Assembly: GCA_964439935.1 (NCBI GenBank) | Contig: CAYTPW010000009.1 | Coordinates: 1,623-65,622, forward strand | Source: an uncultured bacterium | GTDB lineage: Bacteria > Fidelibacterota > Marinisomatia > Marinisomatales > TCS56 | DNA: 64,000 nt | Reading direction: 5' to 3' | In this document: positions 16,153-47,289 of the stretch, piece after piece | How the letters are laid out: the number at the start of each line of letters is the position of its first letter | Numbering within the stretch: position 1 is the first letter of the stretch | Program-made: the position numbers and the translations under genes | Notes under the pieces: generated by a model | What the model was told of the DNA's origin: nothing | What the model saw: only the letters and a program-made list of their open reading frames with translations | The model's database searches: none

Positions 16153-16695
16153 CTACCGGCGCTTTTCATCCTTCTCTTTTTCAAATACCTCTTCATTCAA
16201 TTTATTAACATCTGCCTGAAGGGTAGATATCGACTGCTGCACTTCTGCGATTTGTGCTGCAACACGGCGACGATAGGACGAAAAACTATCCTGTACATCG
16301 CGGATATCGCGGGTGATGCCACTTAATTCATCATTTGTTTCTCGCTGGAACTCTTCAAGGTTGAACTGCACATCGCTGATCATTGTGGCCAGTGAATCGG
16401 TGTTCTTTTTGATCAGCTCAAGGTTGGCAGCGACATTATCGCGATTCCGGGCAACATGCTTACCGCGGCCGATAAACTGTAGATTCAAAGTGCGTAAATC
16501 CTCACGGAATTCAGCGTTTATTTCATCGACATGAGAATCGATAATCGGATTTTCAATGGTCGCCTTTGAATATAGTTGTTCAGAGGCTAATACTTCCATT
16601 ACAGCTAATAATTGAGTATAAGTATACTGAATGTATCCACCACCAATGAGTAAGACGACAATCAATCCAAATATGATTTTATCCTTAATGCTCAT
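16153..16695 (-). CDS. Hypothetical membrane-anchored coiled-coil protein
   Basis: 180 aa with an N-terminal TM helix (IIFGLIVVLLIGGGYI) followed by heptad-like helical sequence. Last gene of the 18678->16153 operon. Confidence 0.6.
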   Translation of the reverse strand: MSIKDKIIFGLIVVLLIGGGYIQYTYTQLLAVMEVLASEQLYSKATIENPIIDSHVDEINAEFREDLRTLNLQFIGRGKHVARNRDNVAANLELIKKNTDSLATMISDVQFNLEEFQRETNDELSGITRDIRDVQDSFSSYRRRVAAQIAEVQQSISTLQADVNKLNEEVFEKEKDEKRR

Positions 16696-16713
16696 AGTAT
16701 CCCCTATCTGTAA

Positions 16714-17046
16714 TTATTTACCTGATGTTTCTACCCGTTTTTCCCATTCACTTATATTTTCATCAGCAGCAGGGGCAGATTCAGGTTGCTCGGGTTCGGT
16801 ATTACTAGATTTAATATTCTGCAGCAATTGCTCTTTGCGCTTGAGATTCTCCTGCAGTTGAACCATCATCTGGCTCACTTCATCATTGAATTCTTTGATT
16901 GTATTTTCCAGGCGCTCTACTAATTCATCCATTAATGATTTACCGTAGGTTTCATTTATACCAACAAGTAAATCATCGAATTTTGAAATCAGATAGTTTT
17001 TTCGGCCTTCTTCTTTATGAAAATCAAGTGCCATTTTTCTACTCAA
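16714..17046 (-). CDS. Small acidic coiled-coil protein (paralog of 36637-37014)
   Basis: 110 aa. The core YGKSLMDELVERLENTIKEFNDEVSQMMVQL...EQLLQNI and the C-terminal ISEWEKRVE align with the 125-aa protein at 36637-37014. Confidence 0.65.
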   Translation of the reverse strand: MSRKMALDFHKEEGRKNYLISKFDDLLVGINETYGKSLMDELVERLENTIKEFNDEVSQMMVQLQENLKRKEQLLQNIKSSNTEPEQPESAPAADENISEWEKRVETSGK

Positions 17047-17126
17047 GTTTACCTATATTATTATGGAAATTAAAAATTGAATTTATTTATTCCTCACTTT
17101 AATTGCACTGTGTGCCGACCAATTCC

Positions 17127-17603
17127 TCATAGCCTCCCAGCCACTGGCTGCTGTTGTGAACTAAACTCTATTATTCCCTGCGTCTGTAATTTTCCACGGA
17201 TTGGATTCAAGATTTCATTCTGCAATTTAAATGGAAGTTTATCTTCCTGTTCATTTTCAATCATTGTGCTGCCGAACAGTGATAGTTGAGATCCCCGCTT
17301 ATACACATATTTTTGTGCCGTGACAAATATCTTCAATCGATCTTCAATTCCCAAGACCAAGGAATAATCGTAGCGCTGTAAAAAATATTTGATCGGTTGT
17401 TGGGTTGTTACGATTAAATTGCTTTCAGGAGCATAAACATCGATCTCGTAACCTAGTTCTTCCAGGATTTGTTTGCAGGCGACCAGAGTAGCGGCTTTGG
17501 TCCCGGGATAATCAAATTCCCAAGCCATCCGAGTCGATTCTGGACATGATGACAGCTGGATCGCCAGGATCAGCGAGCCGAAAAAACGCAGTTTTCCTGA
17601 CAT
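17127..17603 (-). CDS. Hypothetical lipoprotein
   Basis: 158 aa with a signal peptide and lipobox-like LSSC. Separated by 4 nt from the upstream gene. Confidence 0.6.
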   Translation of the reverse strand: MSGKLRFFGSLILAIQLSSCPESTRMAWEFDYPGTKAATLVACKQILEELGYEIDVYAPESNLIVTTQQPIKYFLQRYDYSLVLGIEDRLKIFVTAQKYVYKRGSQLSLFGSTMIENEQEDKLPFKLQNEILNPIRGKLQTQGIIEFSSQQQPVAGRL

Positions 17604-17607
17604 CTAA

Positions 17608-18627
17608 TCAGTAGATTTCAAAAATGCTGGGGATTTTCTCAGCACGTTCCGAGATCGGACGAAAATGCATGTAATCAGGATTATAATAGACCAGCTTCAA
17701 TACGCTGAATTCACCTTCAAAGATCGGTAGTACCGATCCACTCTGTTGCACAACAGCGCTGAGTAATAATTCAATCCTGACCGGAAGTGGCTGCCAGCCA
17801 GAACGATAAAAGGCGCGGGAGAAATTGACATCCAGGATATCATTATATGACGGTGACGGTCCCTGGTAAATCTGATTGGTACTGCTGGGATAACCATAGA
17901 TCTCGGACATACTTTTTTCAATCCGCAAAAACTGATCAATCTGATCGTCTATATCGGTTTGTACCAGTTCGAAATCTATCTCAACTTTCCAGAATCCACT
18001 ATCAGCAAAATGGTACGTAATTTGAACAGGATCAGGCCCTAACCGGGCTGCTAATATAACTTTTACACTGTCCTGGGATATTATCGATTCAGCATAAGCA
18101 AACTGTGGAACACTGCCAATCGGGCTGCCCCAGCGATAACCCTTATAGCCATAACTCATTTCCATTGGCAATGGTGCGATCGGTGCTTCCAGCAACTCTA
18201 CCGCAGCTGCCTCCTGTTCTGCAGTAGGCTGGGATATAGAATCCGTTTGAACGATCTTGGTTATAGTTGAGTCAGTTAGCTCCTCGACGAATTCGCCAGG
18301 CAACGAGTCAGTAGCCGTTATCACCGCAGCTGTATCTGTCTCCAGGCTATCAACAACGAATGTATCTTCAGTAATCAGATTGGTGGTTGAATCGGTAGCG
18401 ACTGAGTCTTCGGTCGCCAGATCGATTGGTGCATCGGCGGTGATTGAATCTTCGGCACCTAAGTTGGTTGGTGTATCGGTAGCGGTTGAATCTTCGGCAT
18501 CCAGATTTGTTGTCGTATCGACAGGTATTGTCTCCGCCGGGACATTACTGGTAACTGTATCTTCCAATATCTCCTGTGCGCAAATCAATGTACTGATGGA
18601 AATTATCAGGATTAATGCTGTTCTCAT
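17608..18627 (-). CDS. Hypothetical secreted protein with acidic 14-aa tandem repeats
   Basis: I prefer the ATG at 18627 (AGGAG RBS 7 nt upstream; MRTALILIISISTLICAQE signal peptide) over the longest-ORF start at 18678. No recognizable domain in the C-terminal about 200 aa. Confidence 0.6.
   Translation of the reverse strand: MRTALILIISISTLICAQEILEDTVTSNVPAETIPVDTTTNLDAEDSTATDTPTNLGAEDSITADAPIDLATEDSVATDSTTNLITEDTFVVDSLETDTAAVITATDSLPGEFVEELTDSTITKIVQTDSISQPTAEQEAAAVELLEAPIAPLPMEMSYGYKGYRWGSPIGSVPQFAYAESIISQDSVKVILAARLGPDPVQITYHFADSGFWKVEIDFELVQTDIDDQIDQFLRIEKSMSEIYGYPSSTNQIYQGPSPSYNDILDVNFSRAFYRSGWQPLPVRIELLLSAVVQQSGSVLPIFEGEFSVLKLVYYNPDYMHFRPISERAEKIPSIFEIY
18349..18516 (-). repeat. Four tandem 42-nt (14-aa) coding repeats
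   Basis: TTTNLDAEDSTATD / TPTNLGAEDSITAD / APIDLATEDSVATD / STTNLITEDTFVVD within the 17608-18627 CDS. Confidence 0.7.
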
Positions 18628-18726
18628 GCCGGTACTCCTGTTGCCGTGGTTCAATGGACGGATTTGCCCATACCTCAAGATAGGGCAAAATACACTTTCA
18701 GCAATCTTTTCGCAAGTGTAAAAAAT

Positions 18727-35577: not shown

Positions 35578-35856
35578 TGCAGTCGTGCACCATCGCTTGA
35601 CCAGTCTGGAGATTCATCTGATCGCAATAGTTGGCTCCCCTTCAGGATACCGCCACCAATTGACTTCAACACCTACCGCTGCTCCTTTCCAGGCCTGACG
35701 GGATTTAGCGTAAAACCATTGCAACGGTTTGAAGTTTCAACGCCACTTTTCACGATTGCTGAATACAGCACCGGCCGTACTTTGGAGTTAAACCCTGCTG
35801 TAGCGGATTGCAGGTTACAGGGCACCGCTACCTCCCCGTCTAGCACGACCACAATG
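35578..35856 (-). ncRNA. ffs: Signal recognition particle RNA, long (Alu-domain-containing, Bacillus-type) form; ends approximate
   Basis: The minus strand contains the helix-8 core GTCAGGCCTGGAAAGGAGCAGCGGTAGG (compare E. coli GUCAGGUCCGGAAGGAAGCAGC). Its 5' segment GTCGTGCTAGACGGGGAGGTAGCGGTGCCCTGTAACCTGCAATCCGCTACAGCAGGG resembles my recollection of the B. subtilis scRNA Alu domain. The 3' end GGTGCACGAC can pair with the 5' GTCGTGC. It lies directly upstream of dnaX, as scr does in Bacillus. Confidence 0.8.
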
Positions 35857-35891
35857 TCAATTAACGCTCTGGTTTTCGTCTAATTCTAACG

Positions 35892-35964
<73 letters not shown>

Positions 35965-36212: not shown

Positions 36213-36590
36213 TCAATAATAAATCACAATTTTTATTTCATCCAATTCGATCCAATCCCAGAAATTCGATCGATCGAGTTTGATGACGCCGTCTTGAAAG
36301 CTGAATCGCACACGTTTGCGATACAGTGACTCGGTAAACCACTGCGAATTATTTCTTTTGTAATAAATCGCTATATATGGCGGACTGTCGGCTTTGAAAT
36401 CTGGTATTATCAGAGTACAAATCGCCTCGTTAAACTCCCCTTCTTCAGTAATAAATTCCACCTTGGTAAAACTGTATACGCGCTTGGTAAGATTTGTGTA
36501 ATCCCGGTACTTGTGAATTGATTGGCAATCAGCCCATGGCGAACAGGCACAAATTATTGCCAGAAGTAATATACCGTTCCGCCAATACAT
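36213..36590 (-). CDS. Hypothetical exported protein
   Basis: 125 aa with an N-terminal signal-like segment (GILLLAIICACSPWADC). Last gene of the 42815->36213 co-directional block. Confidence 0.55.
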   Translation of the reverse strand: MYWRNGILLLAIICACSPWADCQSIHKYRDYTNLTKRVYSFTKVEFITEEGEFNEAICTLIIPDFKADSPPYIAIYYKRNNSQWFTESLYRKRVRFSFQDGVIKLDRSNFWDWIELDEIKIVIYY

Positions 36591-36636
36591 GATTGTATAA
36601 CAACTCGAACCCAGATCTTATTTCTGTCCGGGAAGC

Positions 36637-37014
36637 TTAACTTTTTTTCTGCTCCAGCATCTCCAATCGACGTTCCCACTCACTCATTTCCCGCGCCGGT
36701 TCTTCTGTTTCTTCCTCGGCAGGTTCTTCTTCAACTATCTCAGTTTCACTTTCCTGATGTTGAATCATATTCTGTAGTTGTTCCCGGCGGGTCAGTGACC
36801 GCTGTTTTAATTCCACCAGCATTTCATTGACTTCATTATCAAATTCAGCGATTGTCCGCTCCAGGCGATTCAATAATTCATCCTGCAGAGATACACCATA
36901 CTGGGAACCAATATTTTCCAGGATGTTGCCCAGTTTTTCACTGATATAATTTGCTGCATCAATTTCTGGTGCTGGTTTGGGAGCTGTTTTGTTGGTTGTC
37001 TTTGCCACTGGCAT
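36637..37014 (-). CDS. Small acidic coiled-coil protein (paralog of 16714-17046)
   Basis: 125 aa, core YGVSLQDELLNRLERTIAEFDNEVNEMLVEL...REQLQNMI, an E-rich tract, then MSEWERRLEMLE. Separated by 8 nt from the upstream gene. Confidence 0.65.
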   Translation of the reverse strand: MPVAKTTNKTAPKPAPEIDAANYISEKLGNILENIGSQYGVSLQDELLNRLERTIAEFDNEVNEMLVELKQRSLTRREQLQNMIQHQESETEIVEEEPAEEETEEPAREMSEWERRLEMLEQKKS

Positions 37015-37022
37015 GTAACCTC

Positions 37023-37823
37023 CTATTCTTCAATATTAATGATTTTCTGCACTTCTTCTGGTGAAAGGGTAAAATGTGTTTTAGGACTGGTGAGAATATT
37101 GACCGCCTCATACATCTCCCGTCCTCCAAGTAGACCTAGCAGTATACCCATAAAACGGTAGTGCCAGCCCATTTCGGGTACAGGATTGGTATGGCCATTC
37201 CAGACTTCAGCCAATCCCAATCCCATCAAAGCACCTGCCGTATAAATCCATTTACGCCAACCATATCGGATATTAAAGAATTCGCGATATGCTATTCCAC
37301 TAACTTGATGGTAGGGAAAATCCAGGACTTGAACAGGAGTCTGGATTTGAAGAGAATGGTCAACAGATGGTAGTAAAATTCCACGGATCTTTTTACCGCT
37401 GACGTGTTTGATGATAACATATTGTCCGGTGGGTATCTCCTCCAGAATTTCACTCGTTCTTAAATATGTTAGATTTTCATAAATCTCTTGCCGATCCTTC
37501 ATCGTAATAGCCGGTTTACGATCAATCATGTGTTTTAACCTGATAAATTTATCGAAAGTATAATTCAGGGTTTTAATTTTGATCCTTCCAGATTTCAGAT
37601 AGGCAATTTTCACTTGGTAAGTATCATCAGGCAATGCAAAAATCTGGGCGCTCTCAAACCCAATCACATCTTGGAAGATTCCAAAAACGATATTCTCTTC
37701 CGCATCGATTGTTGTGCCAACCTTGGCGCTGAGAGGTATGATCTCCGGTGACTGGGAAGTTGCCCAACTTGCCAGTAATAAACCGATAATCAGGATTGTC
37801 TTATAAAACCGCCAGCAATTCAT
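37023..37823 (-). CDS. Hypothetical envelope protein (signal peptide plus C-terminal Gly-rich hydrophobic helices)
   Basis: 266 aa, signal TILIIGLLLASWATSQS. The C-terminus has two hydrophobic segments (IYTAGALMGLGLAEVW; FMGILLGLLGG). Overlaps the SelW-like gene by 23 nt. Confidence 0.6.
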   Translation of the reverse strand: MNCWRFYKTILIIGLLLASWATSQSPEIIPLSAKVGTTIDAEENIVFGIFQDVIGFESAQIFALPDDTYQVKIAYLKSGRIKIKTLNYTFDKFIRLKHMIDRKPAITMKDRQEIYENLTYLRTSEILEEIPTGQYVIIKHVSGKKIRGILLPSVDHSLQIQTPVQVLDFPYHQVSGIAYREFFNIRYGWRKWIYTAGALMGLGLAEVWNGHTNPVPEMGWHYRFMGILLGLLGGREMYEAVNILTSPKTHFTLSPEEVQKIINIEE

Positions 37824-38022
37824 CTAATTCCGGAAAACGTCCCGATTCTTTTTTTGAGAAAATCAGTTTATCATTTTTGGTCACCTCAAAAACGCCGCCT
37901 CCGGAAGGAATTAACGTCATTGACTTAATCTTATTTCCATATTTAGTTAAAATGTCCACAGCCACACTGGCTGCTCTAGGTAAATAATTTCAGGCATTAC
38001 AATATTCAATGCTTACATGCAT
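37801..38022 (-). CDS. Rdx-family (SelW/SelT/SelH-like) selenoprotein; UGA at 37992..37990 read as selenocysteine
   Basis: Not in the ORF track. My translation is MHVSIEYCNA-U-NYLPRAASVAVDILTKYGNKIKSMTLIPSGGGVFEVTKNDKLIFSKKESGRFPELDELLAVL* (73 codons). It has the CxxU redox motif, the GGGVFEV...LIFSKK..GRFPE pattern typical of bacterial SelW-like proteins, an AAAGGAG RBS 11 nt upstream of the ATG and a hairpin downstream of the UGA. Confidence 0.8.
37958..37974 (-). promoter_or_regulatory. Candidate bacterial SECIS hairpin
   Basis: On the mRNA, 15 nt after the UGA: GCAGCCA-GUG-UGGCUGU. This gives a 6-7 bp stem with G and U in the apical loop, consistent with bSECIS spacing and loop rules. 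Confidence 0.55.
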
Positions 38023-38105
38023 AAATTACTAAACTCCTTTCTTCTAGGTGATTTTACCTTTCAATTTTAGTACTAAACCAGACAGATTTTAAACACTTGA
38101 GTTGA

Positions 38106-40337
38106 TCATAATTTAAAAGCTGTCTCGATTGTTGTTTGTTTGATCGGGATTAATTCACCGGTCCCATCATCGCGGTAGAACTGGCGAAAATCCCAAATCA
38201 TACTAACTCCGGATGCAATGGCATATCCGACCCGGTAGCCAATGATTGTATTGATGCTGGGATTAGCAAAATCAAATGGATTTGAGTCATTGTTACGCTG
38301 GTAGTAAGCACGCGCTTCACTCAATTTCGGAATCAGATCTGGTTTGATCTCAAGTCCAGCATTGAAACTGTTATACTCTAACGTATCCTTTACCATATTG
38401 GTGTAGGATGCATCGACCCGGACAAGATCGAACAGATTAATACCGGCTGATCCGTAAAAACCCGACATTGACATATCTGAATTTTCCTCACCAAATACCT
38501 GCATATCCTTGGTCCGAACAATTGTCGAAAAACCATCATTAATCGGGACAACCCGTGTTATATCGTAAGATTGATCAAAAAAGCGCGGCACGAAATAACC
38601 TGATTTAATCCGGTATTCAACATTAATATTAATCATACTGAACAGGGTTGCCTTAAGACCCGGTATTGTAATTCCGTCACCTGATCTTGCTTCCGGTCGG
38701 TAAAAGGCTGTTCCCGAATCGCCATCCGCCGGAAAACTAAGGTGGTTCCATTCTGTATATACGGTCAACTGTGCCGATTTTAATTTGATAATTGGGTAAC
38801 CTATATCCAATCCATACCCAAAGGCCTGAGCCTGGCTCCCCTGTGCGCTGAATGGTTCACTCTTTAAAATGACCTCTGTATCACTGCCACCGATCCATGG
38901 ATCAAAATATTCATCATCGTCAGAATTAGGATCCCATAATATTGAATCGGTTCCGGCATGGGGATCCGGAATTCCATCACCATCCGTATCGTTCCAGAAT
39001 AGCTTGTCATTGGGGTAATCATCAAAAGCATCGGGGTAACTATCATCATCGCTGTCAACCAATCCGGAGAATTGATTCATATCCATCACAAAATTGACAC
39101 CGAATGTGAGCGGAAAATTCCTGGAGACTGTATATGAACTTCTGAGACCCATTAATGTACCACCGCGGGAAAAATCCTTCACATTTGACAAGAAAATTTC
39201 AACGCCAAATGATCCAAAACCAAATCCACTGTTGACACCTATCTGGCGCACAGTCGGAAATTCCATCATATTGGAATAACCACTGAGAATACCGCCATAA
39301 CCCAGAGTTACGTTTTCCAGAGCGCCCAATTTAATCCAGAAGGGATCGCCTTTATCGGCCCAGCGGATGTAGAGGAATTTATCCACGATATCCGAAGCTT
39401 CATTCCACTCCTCCTGGCGGATATTACCTTCATTATCGAGGTAAATAACAAGATCAAATCCCAATCCTAGCTTACCAATTTTCAGTTCAGGTCGGAAAGC
39501 TAGCTGATTATACACAATTCCATCAATCGTCACTGAACCGACACCAAAGCCCATTCCAAATGGTTTTGACGGTGGCGAAGGAGTCGATTGCGGGACATCA
39601 GTATCCGGTGTCTCCGGGCTGGTTTCAGGCTCCGGTGCGGGTGCCTGTTCCGGCAGCACTTCCTGTGGGAATTCTTCCGGTATCGCTTCTCCCGGAGCTG
39701 GGGAATACTGTTCAATTAACTGATCCAGTTCCCCGGTTCCGACATCAGGATCGGGATCGATGGGGAATTCAGTTGGCGTGGCCGGTGCGGAGATAACATT
39801 TCCGGTTGGACTGGATAATGCTTTTTGTCCCGGTCCAATTTCCACGGACTGTCCGCTGACCAGATTGAAAACATCAAAGATTCCCTCCTGGCCGTAAAAC
39901 TGGTCGATCCCGCTGGCATCCACAATTGCAGCAAAGATGGTACCCTTCACCGATGCCACTGACGTGGGAGTTTGAACCCGGAAAGTTTTAGTCCTGTTTT
40001 CTTTATTGATATCGTTGATAATTGTGCCTATTTCTATATCGATTGTACGGGTATTCTCAGTATCAACGAACTGGAACTGAGTATTTTCCTTCATTTTAAT
40101 TACGGATTTGTCATCAAGATACATAACGACTGCAAAACTGGCTGATTCGACACGCACGATATCACCGTTACTGATCCCGAATCCTGGCTTTACTAATGTA
40201 TTAAAAGCCTCCGCAGCAACTTTTTTCAATTTGACCGAACCGTTTACTTTGATAACCCGGGCAATCGGCGTGGCTCCGATTATTTGAAAAAAAAGTGCCA
40301 CTCCCAAAATTTGGAGTAAATATTTTTTTGCCAACAT
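38106..40337 (-). CDS. Secreted FecR-domain protein with Pro/acidic linker, TSP3-like Ca-binding repeats and putative C-terminal beta-barrel (paralog 1)
   Basis: 743 aa with a signal peptide. The FecR-like N-terminal domain includes GDIVRVESASFAVVMYLDDKSVIKMKENTQFQF and FRVQTPTSVASVKGTIFAA. The linker is PAPEPETSPETPDTD. Aspartate-rich repeats are DSDDDSYPDAFDDYPND and DTDGDGIPD. The C-terminal region alternates hydrophobic and polar residues. GGAGGA RBS. Confidence 0.8.
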   Translation of the reverse strand: MLAKKYLLQILGVALFFQIIGATPIARVIKVNGSVKLKKVAAEAFNTLVKPGFGISNGDIVRVESASFAVVMYLDDKSVIKMKENTQFQFVDTENTRTIDIEIGTIINDINKENRTKTFRVQTPTSVASVKGTIFAAIVDASGIDQFYGQEGIFDVFNLVSGQSVEIGPGQKALSSPTGNVISAPATPTEFPIDPDPDVGTGELDQLIEQYSPAPGEAIPEEFPQEVLPEQAPAPEPETSPETPDTDVPQSTPSPPSKPFGMGFGVGSVTIDGIVYNQLAFRPELKIGKLGLGFDLVIYLDNEGNIRQEEWNEASDIVDKFLYIRWADKGDPFWIKLGALENVTLGYGGILSGYSNMMEFPTVRQIGVNSGFGFGSFGVEIFLSNVKDFSRGGTLMGLRSSYTVSRNFPLTFGVNFVMDMNQFSGLVDSDDDSYPDAFDDYPNDKLFWNDTDGDGIPDPHAGTDSILWDPNSDDDEYFDPWIGGSDTEVILKSEPFSAQGSQAQAFGYGLDIGYPIIKLKSAQLTVYTEWNHLSFPADGDSGTAFYRPEARSGDGITIPGLKATLFSMININVEYRIKSGYFVPRFFDQSYDITRVVPINDGFSTIVRTKDMQVFGEENSDMSMSGFYGSAGINLFDLVRVDASYTNMVKDTLEYNSFNAGLEIKPDLIPKLSEARAYYQRNNDSNPFDFANPSINTIIGYRVGYAIASGVSMIWDFRQFYRDDGTGELIPIKQTTIETAFKL

Positions 40338-40485
40338 AAAAACCGGTCCTCCGCAGAATAGTTATTGATCCCTGAAAGCACTTACGGTGGAATTTAAGTG
40401 CCCCTGAAATCTGGCAACGTGAGGAAGTTCACGTCGAACTGATTGTGATTAATTTATTGCTAAATCCAATTAAAAGGAAGAATAC

Positions 40486-40515
40486 AATCAGGGGCAAGTG
40501 AACATGCCCCTGATT
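40486..40515 (-). terminator. Strong hairpin downstream of paralog 2 (possible terminator)
   Basis: AATCAGGGGCA-(8 nt)-TGCCCCTGATT, an 11-bp stem followed on the minus strand by GTATTCTTCCTTTT, a moderate T tract. Begins 33 nt after the stop at 40548. Confidence 0.45.
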
Positions 40516-40547
40516 GATGAAAGCATCGTGATCTGACTAGAGATCAG

Positions 40548-42815
40548 CTAAAAATTAAATACCGTTTCAATAGTGGTTTGCGCGATTGGTTCCAACCCAT
40601 CACCGGTATCGCGGTAAAACTGACTGAAGTCCCAGATCAGGCTAACACCAGCACTGATTTCATACCCCAGCCGATAGCCAAAAACTGTGTTTTCAGAGGG
40701 ATTATTAAAATCAAATGGATCAGCGTCGTTATTCCGAATATAATAAGCTCTAGCCTCGCTTAATTTAGGAATCCAATCGGTGTTCAGTCCAGCTACCGCG
40801 GTAAAGCTGCGCACTGTATCGGTTTCAGCCTTCATGTTGGCATAGGAGGCCGACACATTGGCAAAGCCAAAGATATCCCAACCGGCGGATCCAAAGTAAC
40901 CTGATAGGTCAGAATCGTCGACCAAAACTAACATGTCTTTGGTATATATCTCTGTTTCGCCCTGTGAATTTCTCATTGATATTACGCGCGAAATATCATA
41001 TGACTGGTCGAAGAAACGGGGAACGAAATAACCGGTCTTATAACGATATTCGGCATTAATCTGTATCATTTTGAATAGAGTCAGCTTTACACCAGGAATA
41101 GTTATACCTGTTCCTGACTGGGTATCGCGTCCTATGAATTGAGTCCCGGAGGCGCTAGCAGATGGAAATATCAAATGATTCATCTCTGAGTAGATATCGA
41201 TCCCAATAATATTATTACTGAAAACGGGATAACCGACGTCAAATGCAAAGCCAAATGCTCTTGCATTGTTATTTTCCGTACTAAAGGGATCATTGACTAA
41301 TTCAATGAGTGAATCAGGAATGACATCGTAATACGCACTCATATCAATTCCAGTAATAGATTCTATATTCTGCCAGTACTCTAAGATAGCCGGACCAGCC
41401 ACATCTGGATAATCATCCCCATCTCTATTTGTTTCAGCTGGATCATTATCAGCGAGTCCATCATCATCACTATCTTTCCAATACTCTTCCTGATCTGGAA
41501 ATTTGTCAAATACGTCGGGATAATTATCTCCATCACGATCCTTTAATCCCGAAAACTGATTAATATCCACCACCAGATTAGCTCCAACTGTCAGCGGTAA
41601 AGCCTTCGAGAATTTATAGGAAGCCCTGGCACCCAGCAGAGTACCACCACGCATCAAATCTTTAACATTAGAAAGGAAAATTTCTGTGTTGATTTTTTCC
41701 TTGAACTGCATCCCCATGTTAACGCCCAGCTGCCGGACTGACGGATACTCCATCATATTTGAATATCCATTCAACAATCCGCCATAACCAAGTGTCACAG
41801 TCGGTAATGTTCCAAATCTGACCCAGAATGGATCACCTTTTTGGGCCCAGCTGAGATACATGATTTTATCCATGATCACGCTGGGATCATTCTTAACATC
41901 CCAGTCATCCTTGCGGACATTCCCTTCATTATCGATATACAGGACTATATCGAGGCCTACACCCAGTTTGCCGAATTTTAACTCAGGTCGTAAGGCAAAT
42001 TGATTGTAGATCACACCATCGATAGTAACAGAACCGATTCCCAATCCGAAATTATAGGGGCTGTCTTCAGCGGCTTCCCCGGTATCTTCCGGTGGAGCGA
42101 CTTCCTCAGGCACTGGTTGAGTTTCATCTGGAGTAACTTCCTCGGCACCAGTATCCTCCACTTCGGCGTCTTCGTCATCAATTTCTTCGTCAGAATCCGG
42201 TTCTGGTTCAGGTTGTGGTTCCGGCTCAGCATCCGGGTCGCTGGGATATTCATTCGGCAGTGCCGGAGCCTGAATCAAAGCACCGGCAATATTTGAAATC
42301 GCTTTCTGACCGGCGCCGATCGATACAATTTGCTGACTGATCAGATTCAATACTTCGACCAGACCACTGGACCCTAAGAACTGGTCAACACCAAATATGG
42401 AATTTACTATCGCCGTAAATTCAGTACCTTTCACCGAGGCAACAGATGTTGGTGTTTCAATCCGAAATGTTTTAGACCTACCCTCAGTGGCGATCTGATT
42501 GATCAGTGTTCCATTTTCAATTTTCAGTGTACGGCTGCTTTCTGAATCCACGAATTCGAATTCGGAATTCTCTTTAACCTTAATAACCGACCGGTCATCG
42601 ATAAATACCACCACAGCGAATCCTAGTTCGCCAACTTTCAGGGCATCACCATTGTTAATGGCAACTCCTGGCGCGGCGGCTTCTGCAAACTCGGGTCCAC
42701 CCAGCCTTTTAATATTTACTTCACCTTGAGCTTTCATTACCCGGGCAATGGATTCGGCTACAGTAAATCCGGTCATCAGACAAATGACCATTAAACAAAT
42801 AATTATTTTTTTCAT
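40548..42815 (-). CDS. Secreted FecR-domain protein with Pro/acidic linker, TSP3-like repeats and putative C-terminal beta-barrel (paralog 2)
   Basis: 755 aa, collinear with 38106-40337. Shared blocks are FRxxTPTSVASVKGT, GSVTIDGxxYNQ, GDPFW, LGYGGxLxGYSNMMExP, EIFLSNVKD, GITIPGxK, GYFVPRFFDQSYDI, IPKLSEARAYY and QTTIET. Ends in ...VFNF, a C-terminal Phe as in many OMPs. Confidence 0.8.
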   Translation of the reverse strand: MKKIIICLMVICLMTGFTVAESIARVMKAQGEVNIKRLGGPEFAEAAAPGVAINNGDALKVGELGFAVVVFIDDRSVIKVKENSEFEFVDSESSRTLKIENGTLINQIATEGRSKTFRIETPTSVASVKGTEFTAIVNSIFGVDQFLGSSGLVEVLNLISQQIVSIGAGQKAISNIAGALIQAPALPNEYPSDPDAEPEPQPEPEPDSDEEIDDEDAEVEDTGAEEVTPDETQPVPEEVAPPEDTGEAAEDSPYNFGLGIGSVTIDGVIYNQFALRPELKFGKLGVGLDIVLYIDNEGNVRKDDWDVKNDPSVIMDKIMYLSWAQKGDPFWVRFGTLPTVTLGYGGLLNGYSNMMEYPSVRQLGVNMGMQFKEKINTEIFLSNVKDLMRGGTLLGARASYKFSKALPLTVGANLVVDINQFSGLKDRDGDNYPDVFDKFPDQEEYWKDSDDDGLADNDPAETNRDGDDYPDVAGPAILEYWQNIESITGIDMSAYYDVIPDSLIELVNDPFSTENNNARAFGFAFDVGYPVFSNNIIGIDIYSEMNHLIFPSASASGTQFIGRDTQSGTGITIPGVKLTLFKMIQINAEYRYKTGYFVPRFFDQSYDISRVISMRNSQGETEIYTKDMLVLVDDSDLSGYFGSAGWDIFGFANVSASYANMKAETDTVRSFTAVAGLNTDWIPKLSEARAYYIRNNDADPFDFNNPSENTVFGYRLGYEISAGVSLIWDFSQFYRDTGDGLEPIAQTTIETVFNF

Positions 42816-42911: not shown

Positions 42912-45761
42912 TCACATAATCTGGGTCAAATAATCGCGAACGAGTAGTGCAATTGATTCATAAGCGCGATCAGAAGCTGACATCATACCCACTTCGCAGG
43001 TCCGACTGGTTGATATACCCTGGGCAGTGTCAGGAAGTTGTTTAACCTGCTCGGCTTCTTTACGAGTGGCGCTGGCTGTCAGTTCCGGAATTAGCATACC
43101 ACGGTCCCCTGCAAATGCACAACAACCATAATCTTCCGGCAAATGTACGGTCCGGGCGCAATTCCGGGCTAGATCGACCATCATATCTACCTGATCCATT
43201 TTTTGGGTTGAACAAGTGGGATGTAAAACAACTTCACGCTCCAGAGGTTTTTCATCGCGTTCCGCGATCAAATCATGCAGGAAAGGAATGATATCAATAA
43301 ATTTCAATTTATTCCACATAACCAGGATATGCTCATCAGTTATATGATTACCCATGTTTATAAATTGATAAGTGCAGGGGGATGTATCAACTATAATGGG
43401 TACTTCTCCTTGGTGGGATGTTTCAAAAAGCATTGTAATTGTTCGGTTCACCATTTTAGAGTAGGCTGCTTTGAATCCTTTGGAACCGTAGGGCGTGCCA
43501 CAACAGGTATCATTGATCCGTTCCGGAACGATTAACTGAATATTACAGATGGCAGCAATCTGCCCGATGATGTCTGTCAGCGACATTTTTTTACCACTGG
43601 CATTGAAAGTCCGGTTAATACAGGATGTATAATAAATATACGGCATACCACTTCCATATACCTCCTGAGAACGAACGCGGGCACCTGCAGGTAGGACAGA
43701 ATTCCAAACCGGAATCACATGGTTGGACCACCAATTGATTAACTCGGATGGTTTCTTCAATAAATGCTGTAAACCAATATACTTGGCAATATGTTGAACA
43801 TTCAGCAGAAAACGAATCAATTTCTGCAGTCCATTAAAATGAGTAACGGTCCAGTCTGCGATTTGATTTTGCAGCGAACTATGGGCGTCAAACCGTAATT
43901 TTTTTACATAACTGCCCGTATCGATGTTCACCGGGCAGGCGGTTTCGCACAGACCATCCGCCGCACAGGTAGCGGTACCCTTATAATTGTAAGCCTTGAT
44001 CAAATCATATCGACGTTTATCTGAATTACTTTTCATCGTTTCTATTTCACGGGCAACAGCGATGCGATTCCGTGGTGTAAAGGTCAAATTCCGTGACGGG
44101 CATACCGGTTCACAAAAACCACATTCCACACAAAGATCTACCTGCTCATTGACCAGTGGTAACGGTTTCAACGATTTGATATGTACTTTTGGATCGCGAT
44201 TCAGCAAAACATCAGGATTTAATATATTCTGCGGATCTGACAATTCCTTGATCCGCCACATAATCTCGTACAAATCACTACCCCACTCCTGTTCGACAAA
44301 CGGTGCCATATTGCGCCCGGTTCCATGTTCTGCCTTTAATGAACCGTCATATTTAGAGACTGTCATTTGTCCAATGTCAGCCAGCATCCGTTCGTATGCT
44401 TTGATGCCTGCGTCTGTTTCCAGATCGATTGAAGCAACAAAATGCAGGTTACCGTCTTTGGCATGCCCGAAGATTACGGCATCTTCGTAATTCCATTTAT
44501 CAAAAATGGCATGTAGATCGGCAATCACGTCAGCCAGTTTTTCAACATCGAAGCAAATATCTTCGGTTATTACGCTGGTACCTGGCTTCCGTAGCGAACC
44601 AACTGTTGTAAACAGACTCTTCCGCACAGTCCACAATTTTAAACGGTTAGTCTCATCATTGAAAAAACCACTGAGTACTTTGCCTTTATATTTACCAAGA
44701 TTTGTTTCAATGTACTGAGCGCAAACCTCAGCTTCCTTGAGACTGTCTTTCTGAAATTCGCATAATAAAGATGCGGAACCTGGTTTCAATTTGTCTGGGT
44801 CGTATGGTGGTGCTTCCAGATATTTTGCAGTTGTCAGAGAATTGAAATCCATCAATTCGACCGCATCGGCTCCATTGGCTTTTAAGAATTCAATCGCATT
44901 ACAGGTTTCTTTCAAGGATGGAAATATCAATAAACCGGTCACTTTAAATTCAGGATCTGGTAACGTTTTCAATGTAACATCAGAAATGAAGGCCAGAGTA
45001 CCCTCGGCACCAATCAGCAAATGAGCGAATATATCTAATGGATTTTCAAAGTCAAGCATTGCATTAAGAGAATAGCCCAATGTGTTCTTAATACGGTATT
45101 TATGTATTATTTTTTTCTTTAAATCATCACTGGATATAATTTCATCACGCAGCCTGGTTAATCCCGAAGCCAGTTCTTTTTCCTGTACTGCAAAACGTTG
45201 ATAATCAGCATCGATGCTGGTATCATAAACATTTCCATTACCGAGAATGAAGCGGATATCCTGCAATGTATAATAAGAATTCAAGCCGATCCCGCTGTTC
45301 ATTCCGGAGGCATTATTTGATACAATTCCACCGACTCTGGCTGCCTTGATGGAAGCCGGGTCAGGTCCGATCTTCCGTCCAAACGGCGCTAAAGCGCGGT
45401 TGACATGATCACCGATTACACCTGGTTGGAGGTTTATAGCCTTACCATCTGCAAGAATTTTATATCCGGTCCAACCCTGGACCGTTTCTGCCACAATGCC
45501 ATCGGTTACTGTCTGACCGGATAGCGAAGTACCACCACCTCTGAATGTAACTCCAACTCTGTTCTGATGGGCATATTTCAGCAATCTGATCACCTGCGCT
45601 TCATCCTGTGGCTGTACAACTGCCTGAGGAACCAGGCGGTATATGCTGGCATCATGGGCATAAGCAAGACGATCGATCAACTGGACAGTCGCACTCTGTT
45701 CTTTCAATGTATTAGTCAGCTGTTGAAGGTTCAAACCAACTGAATTATCATCCAATTTCAT
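42912..45761 (-). CDS. FAD-linked oxidase fused to 4Fe-4S and CCG (GlcF-like) domains, YdiJ-like
   Basis: 949 aa with an N-terminal FAD-binding PCMH-type region (RGGGTSLSGQ), two ferredoxin-type Cys clusters (CVECGFCEPVCPS; CAADGLCETACPV) and a Cys-rich C-terminal region. Confidence 0.85.
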   Translation of the reverse strand: MKLDDNSVGLNLQQLTNTLKEQSATVQLIDRLAYAHDASIYRLVPQAVVQPQDEAQVIRLLKYAHQNRVGVTFRGGGTSLSGQTVTDGIVAETVQGWTGYKILADGKAINLQPGVIGDHVNRALAPFGRKIGPDPASIKAARVGGIVSNNASGMNSGIGLNSYYTLQDIRFILGNGNVYDTSIDADYQRFAVQEKELASGLTRLRDEIISSDDLKKKIIHKYRIKNTLGYSLNAMLDFENPLDIFAHLLIGAEGTLAFISDVTLKTLPDPEFKVTGLLIFPSLKETCNAIEFLKANGADAVELMDFNSLTTAKYLEAPPYDPDKLKPGSASLLCEFQKDSLKEAEVCAQYIETNLGKYKGKVLSGFFNDETNRLKLWTVRKSLFTTVGSLRKPGTSVITEDICFDVEKLADVIADLHAIFDKWNYEDAVIFGHAKDGNLHFVASIDLETDAGIKAYERMLADIGQMTVSKYDGSLKAEHGTGRNMAPFVEQEWGSDLYEIMWRIKELSDPQNILNPDVLLNRDPKVHIKSLKPLPLVNEQVDLCVECGFCEPVCPSRNLTFTPRNRIAVAREIETMKSNSDKRRYDLIKAYNYKGTATCAADGLCETACPVNIDTGSYVKKLRFDAHSSLQNQIADWTVTHFNGLQKLIRFLLNVQHIAKYIGLQHLLKKPSELINWWSNHVIPVWNSVLPAGARVRSQEVYGSGMPYIYYTSCINRTFNASGKKMSLTDIIGQIAAICNIQLIVPERINDTCCGTPYGSKGFKAAYSKMVNRTITMLFETSHQGEVPIIVDTSPCTYQFINMGNHITDEHILVMWNKLKFIDIIPFLHDLIAERDEKPLEREVVLHPTCSTQKMDQVDMMVDLARNCARTVHLPEDYGCCAFAGDRGMLIPELTASATRKEAEQVKQLPDTAQGISTSRTCEVGMMSASDRAYESIALLVRDYLTQIM

Positions 45762-46113: not shown

Positions 46114-47289
46114 TTGAACCGAATATTTTTAACCGTCCTGTGCTTTGGAAATCTGATGAGTACAAGCCAGCTATTGGCTGCGGGTGAAAATATTACTAAA
46201 GCTAGTAATTGGGGGTATAGTTACAATGATTTACTTAACGATCTGCCAATTTGGAATGCCAGTCCCTGGGTAACTCTCGATTCGATCGGTGCCAGCGTTC
46301 AGGGAAGAGCATTGTGGGAGTTGACCATCACCGATACCCTGCCACACGATTCACCGCGTCGCACTATCTATATGCACGTTCGCACCCATCCCAATGAAGT
46401 ACAGTCATTCTGGGTTGCCAACGAATTTATCAATCTGCTTCTTTCTGATGATCCTTACGCTGCGTTTTTACGATCGCGATGCACTTTCTATATTATTCCC
46501 ATGTATAATCCCGATGGTGTCGAACTCGGCTTTCCCAGGGAAAATGCCAACGGAATAGATATTGAAAGCAACTGGGCCGATATTCCAATGCAACCAGAAC
46601 CAACGGCCTTGAAGCAGCGATTTACAGACCTGATGGCATCCGCCGCTCCGATAGAAATAGCACTAAATATGCATTCTGCGTACAGAGCCGCTGTTAGGTA
46701 TTTTGTCTATCACCATGAGAATGGAACATCATACGAGTATACTCAGCTGGAACAGCAATTCATTGGAGCAGTTCAATCATATTTTCCTACCGGGATCGCC
46801 CCCTGGTACCACACTGTTACCTGGACCAATTTTACTCCCGATTATTATCCCGAAAGCTGGTTCTGGCTGAACCACGGTAATTCTGTAATGGCTTTGACTT
46901 ACGAAGATATGAACAATGATCAGGCAGGCTTGTATGATTCCACTGCCTACGCTCTGCTTCATGGGATAGGTGACTATCTGGGATTGGTTCCCTCAACAAC
47001 TGTTGTTGAAGTAACTGATCATCCTCAAACATTCACTCTGAACCAAAATTATCCCAATCCATTTAATCCGATCACAACAATCAGTTATTATCTCATAAAA
47101 CCGGGATATGTTACCATGAATATATTAGACTTGAGAGGTCGTACAGTGGCAACTCCAGTAAATACATTCCAATCAGCTGGGAACAAACAAATACAGTGGA
47201 ACGGTGAACTGTATCCCACAGGAACATATTTCTACCAGCTAATAGTCGACGGACGGCAACAAACAGGGAAAATGACTATGCTAAAATAG
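46114..47289 (+). CDS. Secreted zinc carboxypeptidase (peptidase M14) with T9SS C-terminal sorting domain
   Basis: 391 aa with a TTG start and a signal peptide. Has an HPNE zinc motif, PMYNPDG and NMHSA. The C-terminus NYPNPFNPITTISYYL...GTYFYQL...KMTMLK matches the Por_Secre_tail pattern. Confidence 0.8.
   Translation: MNRIFLTVLCFGNLMSTSQLLAAGENITKASNWGYSYNDLLNDLPIWNASPWVTLDSIGASVQGRALWELTITDTLPHDSPRRTIYMHVRTHPNEVQSFWVANEFINLLLSDDPYAAFLRSRCTFYIIPMYNPDGVELGFPRENANGIDIESNWADIPMQPEPTALKQRFTDLMASAAPIEIALNMHSAYRAAVRYFVYHHENGTSYEYTQLEQQFIGAVQSYFPTGIAPWYHTVTWTNFTPDYYPESWFWLNHGNSVMALTYEDMNNDQAGLYDSTAYALLHGIGDYLGLVPSTTVVEVTDHPQTFTLNQNYPNPFNPITTISYYLIKPGYVTMNILDLRGRTVATPVNTFQSAGNKQIQWNGELYPTGTYFYQLIVDGRQQTGKMTMLK

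Follow-up and report, generated by a model that had tools for sequence, protein, structure and literature searches.

OmpM/SLH-barrel proteins and OmpA-type tethers carry a periplasmic binding domain on a long flexible linker that leads to an outer-membrane barrel, and LptD, the barrel of the LptD/LptE pair, has 26 strands. No other selenoproteins are as common in marine metagenomes as the SelW-like proteins, for which, to our knowledge, no function has been known for twenty years. The Marinimicrobia (SAR406), hardly any of which have been cultured, abound in dark and oxygen-poor ocean waters. Among smaller envelope proteins, SlyB and YfgH form rings that enclose outer-membrane proteins (OMPs; bioRxiv 10.64898/2025.12.22.696046). 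Here, we analysed a 64,000-nucleotide stretch of contig CAYTPW010000009.1 from an uncultured marinimicrobial bacterium, hereafter the window, which contains a block of minus-strand genes that a preliminary description had presented as six uncharacterised envelope genes built around a SelW-like selenoprotein. Our comparisons show that the five genes at 36213-40337 make up an operon restricted to the phylum Marinimicrobia (Fidelibacterota). The operon encodes a FecR-domain outer-membrane barrel (paralog B), the selenoprotein (Rdx) and three further proteins (p266, p125a and p125b), and its ancestral core consisted of the barrel, p266, p125a and p125b. The cassette is an outer-membrane barrel operon with accessory proteins, and we found no described system that matches this gene set.

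Conservation of the cassette was assessed by searching the window proteins with phmmer against stop-to-stop open reading frames (ORFs) of 92 fetched loci, which together with the window gave 93 sources. Homologues of p266 were detected in 87 of these sources, p125a in 85, Rdx in 66 and p125b in 63, and the contigs carrying the first p266 homologues already contained a barrel, Rdx, p266 and products of ~125 and ~120 aa. Gene order and flanks were analysed in 75 non-redundant loci with flanking ORFs, drawn from GTDB species representatives and metagenomes. The order barrel, Rdx (where present), p266, p125a, p125b (where present) was unbroken in all 75 comparable loci, and a barrel orthologue lay directly 5′ of the cassette in every one of them (75/75). 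Departures from the usual nearest ORF occurred in at least 15 of the 69 loci informative for the upstream side and in 18 of the 65 informative for the downstream side. Three contig sets (L004, L005-7 and L008-11) have flanks unlike those of the window, and both flanks differ in seven loci (L004, L005, L022, L023, L032, L067 and L091). The adjacency that the preliminary description proposed to check in related genomes is thus conserved in the 75 loci, including genomes in which both flanks are different.

The start/stop overlaps and short gaps that recur across loci indicate operon-like spacing. The stop of Rdx overlaps the start of p266 in 52 of 53 loci (median -29 nt; a 23-nt overlap in the window), which bears out the earlier view that the selenoprotein is tightly coupled to an exported protein. 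Downstream, p125a follows p266 at a median of 15 nt (58 loci; 8 nt in the window) and p125b follows p125a at a median of -2.5 nt (46 nt in the window), with an ATGA overlap in 21 of 42 loci. Paralog B and Rdx are separated by 83 nt in the window, and in the clade that lacks Rdx the barrel stop lies between -4 and +13 nt from the p266 start. Sigma-70 promoter and terminator scans of the region gave no enrichment over shuffles, and Rfam at a permissive E-value gave no match within the block.

Searches were extended to the individual families of the operon. The barrel family comprises more than 972 clusters, with 552 confirmed stretches in GTDB species representatives, and among the best 80 of these 552 stretches the named organisms are Marinimicrobia, Neomarinimicrobiota, Fidelibacterota or FCB-group bacteria. 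Similarly, p125b falls into 860 clusters, of which the named ones all belong to Marinimicrobia, Fidelibacterota or FCB and none carries a Pfam domain. For p266, a word-indexed search returned 12 proteins, local phmmer found 86 in the fetched loci and an exhaustive profile search gave 384 cluster representatives. An initial reading of p266 as a tiny family, based on the 12 indexed matches, was therefore a sensitivity artefact; for a fast-diverging protein such as this one, few indexed-search matches do not mean a narrow family. The preliminary description recognised the gene combination from no described system and considered that its proteins might prove homologous to characterised pathways. 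Pfam, NCBIfam, PADLOC, and PDB sequence and fold searches gave no confident homology of this kind, and we found no paper describing the combination. In particular, profiles of the barrel, p266, p125a and p125b had no significant match among PDB sequences, PADLOC defence models gave no credible match to the block, and the literature on Marinimicrobia with selenoproteins or FecR, and on SAR406 metaproteomics, yielded no description of the operon.

The coordinates, strand, lengths and spacings given earlier for the six genes all agree with the ORF list, and the tRNA-Ala and signal recognition particle (SRP) RNA were likewise confirmed as downstream flanks (Table 1). The six genes are not one unit, however, as paralog A belongs to a separate lineage. 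Paralogs A and B are 52% identical, and the best matches of A are the upstream barrel copies in L001 and L017 and a solo copy in L079, which score 1060-1214 bits against A and 727-811 against B. In L079 the A-type barrel directly follows a YdiJ-like dehydrogenase gene and is followed by unrelated genes, with no Rdx, p266 or p125 downstream; L079 and L004 come from the same metagenome-assembled genome, which carries a B-type cassette on another contig. In the window, the 210-nt gap between A and B holds a hairpin with a 12-bp stem, seven G-C pairs and a T-rich tail, called terminator-like from its position and stem strength, the regional count of such structures being no higher than in shuffles. 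Taken together, the relatives of A, its context in L079 and the hairpin divide the block into one unit, probably the dehydrogenase plus A, followed by the five-gene operon. Paralog A is a lineage-specific duplicate that forms its own unit beside the upstream 2-hydroxyacid dehydrogenase, outside the cassette.

Table 1. Positions of the cassette genes, associated hairpins and flanking features in the window
Feature	Position	Strand	Product	Basis or remark
Paralog A, FecR-barrel	40548-42815	minus	755 aa	ORF list
Paralog B, FecR-barrel, cassette gene 1	38106-40337	minus	743 aa	ORF list
Rdx/SelW-like selenoprotein gene	37801-38022	minus	73 aa	ATG at 38022, stop 37801-37803
p266	37023-37823	minus	266 aa	ORF list
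p125a	36637-37014	minus	125 aa	ORF list
p125b	36213-36590	minus	125 aa	ORF list
Terminator-like hairpin	40485-40516	minus		between paralogs A and B
SECIS-like hairpin	37957-37975	minus		fold and covariation
YdiJ-like FAD/Fe-S/CCG 2-hydroxyacid dehydrogenase (context)	42912-45761	minus	949 aa	Pfam domains
tRNA-Ala	35891-35964			downstream flank of block
Large SRP RNA	35583-35848			downstream flank of block

The FecR domains reported earlier for both barrel paralogs score above the Pfam cut-off (PF04773; E 3.7e-09 for B and 5e-08 for A). An AlphaFold2 model of barrel B, with a predicted local distance difference test (pLDDT) of 75.7, was examined together with one of p266. In barrel B, the signal peptide is followed by a FecR beta-sandwich (~26-185) and then by a barrel (260-742), which in the model has ~20-22 beta-strands and a predicted DxDxDG Ca-binding-like loop inserted at 420-504. 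The two are joined by a linker (~198-256) that is disordered, acidic and rich in proline (18 Pro and 17 Asp+Glu in 72 residues). The TSP3 assignment made earlier survives as a motif, DxDxD[G/N]xxD, present once in B (residue 450) and twice in A (residues 426 and 448); at the family level it does not, with no Pfam TSP_3 match at E<=1 in either paralog. Foldseek placed the FecR domain near the periplasmic domains of anti-sigma proteins (4m0n and 6ovk; root-mean-square deviation, rmsd, 1.9-2.4 Å) and returned generic matches for the barrel region (LptD, AlgE, OccD and OmpF; TM-score 0.2-0.27), the top one being LptD (E 1.5e-8, TM-score 0.26, rmsd 21 Å). Against the NCBIfam FecR model the barrel reaches 11 bits, with a cut-off of 385, and its signal peptide runs straight into the FecR domain.

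The barrel is also conserved at the level of sequence. Measured as median identity to the window protein over the same 74 distant loci, p125b (69.3%) and Rdx (64.5%) exceed YbaB (62.9%) and RecR (62.7%), followed by the barrel (52.8%), the YdiJ-like enzyme (48.8%), DnaX (45.2%), p125a (37.8%) and p266 (37.0%). Its slower evolution compared with DnaX speaks for a core role of the barrel, with many interactions, and against a nutrient porin.

By sequence criteria, Rdx is a genuine predicted selenoprotein gene and an ordinary member of a known family. Its ATG is preceded by an AAAGGAG ribosome-binding site, and its product begins MHVSIEYCNA-U-NYLPRAAS, with an in-frame UGA at 37990-37992 forming the redox motif C-N-A-U and with no signal peptide. 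The product matches Pfam Rdx (PF10262; 83.9 bits, E 8.9e-24, cut-off 22.6), NCBIfam SelTWH_Campy (96.6 bits, cut-off 88) and TIGR02174 (66.8 bits, cut-off 34.2). In the homologous copies from the fetched loci, CxxU is encoded with TGA in 65 of 65 and a Cys variant occurs in none (0/65), while peptide conservation extends to either side of the UGA. A hairpin resembling a selenocysteine insertion sequence (SECIS), with an 8-bp stem and a G-U-N apical loop that starts 22 nt past the UGA, agrees with what has been described of bacterial SECIS elements in marine SelW-like genes (PMC1088965). Over 57 distinct sequences 82% of its cells are paired, and pair 25-37, which joins synonymous third positions of two Ala codons, occurs as GC, AU, GU, CG, UA and UG. 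Its covariation score of 0.258 compares with 0.128 in shuffled alignments, none of 500 of which reaches it, and with 0.04-0.09 in slid registers.

The distribution of Rdx indicates that the block is not built around it. In a neighbour-joining tree of the barrel, 22 loci without Rdx group in one clade and 53 Rdx-bearing loci in the other, and the Rdx-less clade keeps the barrel, p266, p125a and p125b. A single event accounts for this pattern, either an insertion of Rdx between the barrel and p266 or its loss from there, and one of the two major clades has retained the gene. Rdx is better described as an accessory gene, anciently inserted, stably retained and co-translated with p266, than as a hub. 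Alignments of the barrel, p266 and p125a contain no invariant or nearly invariant Cys, and a thiol-based link between Rdx and these neighbours was rejected on this ground. A single nearly invariant Cys is found in p125b, where it is also present in two Rdx-less copies inspected (L024 and L070). With no conserved Cys pair among the partners, there is no evident thiol substrate for Rdx among its neighbours.

The interval between the barrel and Rdx holds a further small gene in many genomes. The "spacer" of ~143 nt proves to be a conserved ORF in at least 30 of the 57 loci with Rdx (L012:441-575, L008:2329-2481, L034:8223-8357 and at least 27 more); it encodes a single-span membrane mini-protein of 41-52 aa with the consensus M..xKTVYRYDxGGxGF+KAA followed by ~20 hydrophobic residues. 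In most loci that have this ORF, its ATG shares 1 nt with the stop codon of the barrel gene, and it is missing from 38023-38105 of the window and from the window's closest relatives.

Behind its signal peptide, p266 has an alpha/beta domain (~26-130) and a small barrel of Sm/SH3-like type (135-180), followed by a helical hairpin with a Gly-zipper (187-245). In its AlphaFold2 model (pLDDT 73.6), helix 216-245, which bears GxxxGxxxG, is predicted to pair with helix 187-212, and the alignment shows invariant G226, G230, G234, E206, W208, N209, W220, R223 and E236. These helices had been described as Gly-rich and hydrophobic; they are Gly-rich, but on the Kyte-Doolittle scale they average 0.0 and 0.28, no window of 19 residues is above 1.2, and positive charges precede helix 1 instead of lying in the loop. 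This low hydrophobicity and placement of charge suggest an outer-membrane or periplasmic location rather than inner-membrane spans. Many of the 384 profile matches to p266 cover only the N-terminal ~100 residues (~5-100), often in tandem. Elsewhere this N-terminal domain is joined to Gly-zipper-like C-termini (P0302, with a sub-threshold Gly-zipper_YMGG match, and P0318) or to a barrel-like C-terminus with the OMP-type ending ...VMFYF (P0355), and one relative comes from candidate division KSB1. Its occurrence on varied outer-membrane-type C-termini suggests a periplasmic module joined to outer-membrane anchors. Next to remote relatives of this domain in three metagenomic loci we found no barrel, Rdx, p125a or p125b.

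Of the two 125-aa products, p125b is the most conserved protein of the cassette (mean column identity 72%) and consists of a signal peptide and ~100 aa with an invariant C-terminal Tyr; it is predicted to be exported. Profile-profile comparison found no relationship of p125b to p266 or to the barrel. The gene is missing from L023, L030-L033, L035, L036, L038, L039, L044-L046, L050, L058, L062, L066, L086 and L091, and in L038 dnaX starts 51 nt past p125a. The p125a protein is acidic, as noted earlier (isoelectric point 4.5), and helical, lacks a signal peptide and is presumably cytoplasmic; its Pfam matches are sub-threshold noise, and comparison with PDB gave nothing informative. In most lineages (e.g. 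L024, L049 and L083) it ends in a polybasic-aromatic C-terminal tail, KKKKGLFGRKKK. It is plausible that this tail binds membrane and that the window copy has lost it. The p125a proteins of the window (36637-36700), L004 and L005 end in ...LEQKKS or ...LDKKS, without the KKKKGLFGRKKK tail. The window also encodes a p125a paralog of 110 aa (16714-17046, minus strand; 34% identical, phmmer 5e-17) in a minus-strand cluster at 16153-18678. Also in the cluster are a 180-aa protein (16153-16695) that has a coiled coil and, at its N-terminus, a hydrophobic segment, a 158-aa signal-peptide protein (17127-17603) and a 356-aa exported acidic-repeat protein (17608-18678), and Pfam gave no meaningful match within it.

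Upstream of the barrels lies a gene whose product combines the Pfam domains FAD_binding_4, FAD-oxidase_C, 4Fe-4S and CCG. It scores 189.8 bits against the NCBIfam YdiJ model, which has a cut-off of 1350, so that it is not an equivalog and has the domain architecture alone in common. The preliminary description placed it at the boundary of the block, yet it is a conserved co-directional neighbour: in 44 loci, or 47 when counted by cluster, the closest same-strand ORF upstream belongs to the YdiJ-like family, with a median of 34 nt separating it from the barrel and an overlap in some cases. Another 10 loci have, at that position and on the same strand, a D-lactate dehydrogenase of the Dld type (FAD_binding_4 plus Lact-deh-memb, 3.5e-123) in its stead. 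Counting both enzymes, at least 54 of the 69 informative loci have one directly upstream in the same orientation, and dnaX is downstream in 47 of 65. Loci with the Dld-type enzyme include L038 (4131-5876), L039, L062, L076-L078, L080, L087 and L090. The C-terminal CCG region of the YdiJ-like protein has a weak match (E 4e-4, far below cut-off) to the NCBIfam family "diclust_near_Sec", whose name refers to a location near selenoprotein genes; the match may be noise, or it may point to a redox connection of the dehydrogenase with Rdx. Further away, on the plus strand at 46114-47289, a 391-aa protein has a C-terminus (...NYPNPFNPITTISYYL...GTYFYQL...) that resembles a type IX secretion sorting domain. 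If the resemblance holds, this putative domain looks like one that would fit an FCB-group organism.

How the products of the operon might work together can be outlined from their predicted locations: the barrel, p266 and p125b have signal peptides, and Rdx and p125a do not. Our preferred reading, which we hold tentatively and put slightly short of an even chance, is a constitutive complex of the envelope, formed by these products with the outer membrane as its centre. The barrel would sit in the outer membrane and hang its FecR-type beta-sandwich into the periplasm on a flexible acidic Pro-rich tether of ~60 residues, and the FecR domain would dock the exported partners p266 and p125b. Of these, p266 would probably assemble into oligomers on the periplasmic side of the outer membrane, much as SlyB and YfgH do, by way of its Sm-like barrel and its Gly-zipper hairpin, and the very highly conserved p125b would be the small exported partner. 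We would place p125a on the cytoplasmic side of the inner membrane, along with the 44-aa single-span mini-protein in lineages having it. Rdx would then be an accessory cytoplasmic thiol/selenol oxidoreductase made in step with p266 and not the core of the machine. Such a complex could stabilise or tether the outer membrane, or could export or insert an envelope component. A stronger version, in which the barrel, p266, p125b and p125a are a phylum-specific envelope machine analogous to LptDE or to a SlyB-type cage and Rdx is a genuine functional accessory, appears unlikely to us.

Several observations weigh against the envelope complex. The wider region is also syntenic in the phylum, with the dehydrogenase upstream and SRP RNA and dnaX downstream, so that part of the cassette's conservation could be inertia, and the association with Rdx is a single evolutionary event. 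The gene for p125b is missing from the locus in ~20 species of several separate tree groups, which would not be expected of an obligatory subunit, barring relocation of the gene within those genomes. For the Sm-like part of p266, the best Foldseek matches are Hfq and SmAP (Hfq/LSm), with weak E-values of 0.02-0.07 and target-normalised TM-scores of 0.6-0.69 over 45-80 columns of a model of pLDDT 73.6. Moreover, p266 matches no Pfam family at E<=1, glycine-zipper families included, and the alignment has no conserved Cys after its signal peptide, which indicates that it is not a lipoprotein. Both structural models (barrel B and p266) are of moderate confidence (pLDDT 74-76; predicted TM-scores of 0.40 and 0.55), the localisations of all cassette products are predictions, and two cytoplasmic products are encoded among exported ones.

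The conserved neighbourhood also gives rise to two other explanations. In a catabolic uptake operon, the barrel would be a channel for D-lactate, glycolate or another 2-hydroxyacid used by the upstream dehydrogenase, with p266 and p125b as periplasmic helpers. Its main support is the exchange of the YdiJ-like gene for a Dld-type enzyme of the same general class, to which can be added the short distance between the YdiJ-like gene and the barrel, the A-type barrel that remained with the dehydrogenase in L079 after duplication, and the substrate channels AlgE, OccD and OmpF among the Foldseek matches. Those matches are generic, however, the cassette contains no inner-membrane transporter and is intact without the dehydrogenase in the seven loci where both flanks differ, and the barrel is more conserved than DnaX, unlike typical porins; we regard a catabolic role as quite unlikely. 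The broad conservation of the dehydrogenase and dnaX as neighbours could instead mean that the genes have no common function and are adjacent only because the region near the SRP RNA, dnaX, ybaB and recR is rarely rearranged. This is very improbable in our estimation, given that breakpoints in the 75 loci fall at both edges of the cassette and never inside it, that the cassette has been relocated as a block at least seven times, and that the start/stop overlaps point to translational coupling.

The FecR domain and the selenoprotein each suggest a further alternative. If the FecR domain acted as in FecR/PupR, the operon could serve cell-surface signalling, with an outer-membrane signal relayed inward through p266 and p125a. 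The domain scores above the Pfam cut-off and superposes on 4m0n and 6ovk at ~2 Å, and the p125a profile has a marginal match to the sigma-binding protein Crl (E=6.5e-4, 41 residues). We treated the latter as compositional, as it covers a short helical stretch. The cassette also lacks an extracytoplasmic function (ECF) sigma factor, a TonB-dependent transducer and a cytoplasmic anti-sigma domain, the FecR domain is fused to a barrel and not to an inner-membrane anchor, and the p266 helices are not credible inner-membrane spans, all of which makes signalling a highly doubtful explanation. The preliminary description had suggested that the block could be an envelope sensing, adhesion or redox module, all of them speculative roles. 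In an envelope redox module centred on the selenoprotein, Rdx would reduce or oxidise exported or membrane partners. The CxxU motif is always Sec, the Rdx gene overlaps the p266 start almost invariably, and Rdx has been kept at the same spot through deep divergence and relocations of the cassette. Against this, the 22-locus clade without Rdx keeps everything else, Rdx has no signal peptide whereas the barrel, p266 and p125b are exported, the barrel, p266 and p125a lack a conserved Cys, and the single such residue of p125b persists in Rdx-less L024 and L070. We therefore give a redox module centred on Rdx little credence, and retain the envelope complex centred on the barrel as our preferred reading.

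The retention of the operon across the sampled phylum, together with the slow evolution of the barrel and p125b, makes it a good candidate for a core envelope function. It escapes current annotation, in which every member is labelled "hypothetical" or "FecR domain-containing". The fixed, translationally coupled position of Rdx offers candidate partners for the selenoprotein, namely p266 and, in many lineages, the 44-aa membrane mini-protein, and the Rdx-less sister clade provides a natural comparison group. Were the operon to encode a new machine with Rdx as an accessory, this would be the first defined cellular partner for the most abundant marine bacterial selenoprotein family.

Comparison with known systems places the operon close to several of them and within none. 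With the FecR/PupR anti-sigma regulators the barrel shares the periplasmic FecR beta-sandwich (~2 Å rmsd to 4m0n and 6ovk), but it lacks their cytoplasmic anti-sigma domain and single inner-membrane span, its FecR domain is fused through a linker to a large barrel, and no sigma factor or TonB-dependent transducer is found among the six genes. The FecR domain is thus a known fold in a non-canonical fusion and does not qualify as an anti-sigma regulator. LptD/LptE likewise combine an N-terminal beta-sandwich, a large barrel and a small conserved exported partner encoded nearby, and the barrel is conserved at a housekeeping level. The barrel nevertheless differs from LptD in fold (TM-score 0.26, rmsd 21 Å) and strand number (~20-22), no OstA_N/LptD profile of Pfam or NCBIfam matches it, and p125b is not a lipoprotein and is missing from the locus in ~20 species. 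OmpM/SLH and OmpA-type tethers have the same succession of periplasmic domain, flexible linker and barrel as the window protein, but the periplasmic domain of the latter is FecR-type, not SLH or OmpA_C, and we detected no peptidoglycan-binding motif. The glycine-zipper 2TM lipoproteins SlyB and YfgH resemble p266 in its GxxxGxxxG hairpin, low hydrophobicity and adjacent small beta domain, and p266 is encoded next to an outer-membrane barrel. It differs from them in having no lipobox Cys or Pfam glycine-zipper, in a hairpin that is C-terminal to the globular domains and in its extra N-terminal domains. Membership in the LptD, TSP3 and SlyB families fails at the profile level, and the likeness to each is an architectural analogy only. 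Rdx, by contrast, agrees with the SelW-like/Rdx selenoproteins in its near-N-terminal CxxU, in passing both curated cut-offs and in a SECIS with an apical-loop G. We found no paper reporting an envelope-operon context for this family, and what sets the window gene apart within it is its fixed, translationally coupled place in an envelope operon across a deep clade.

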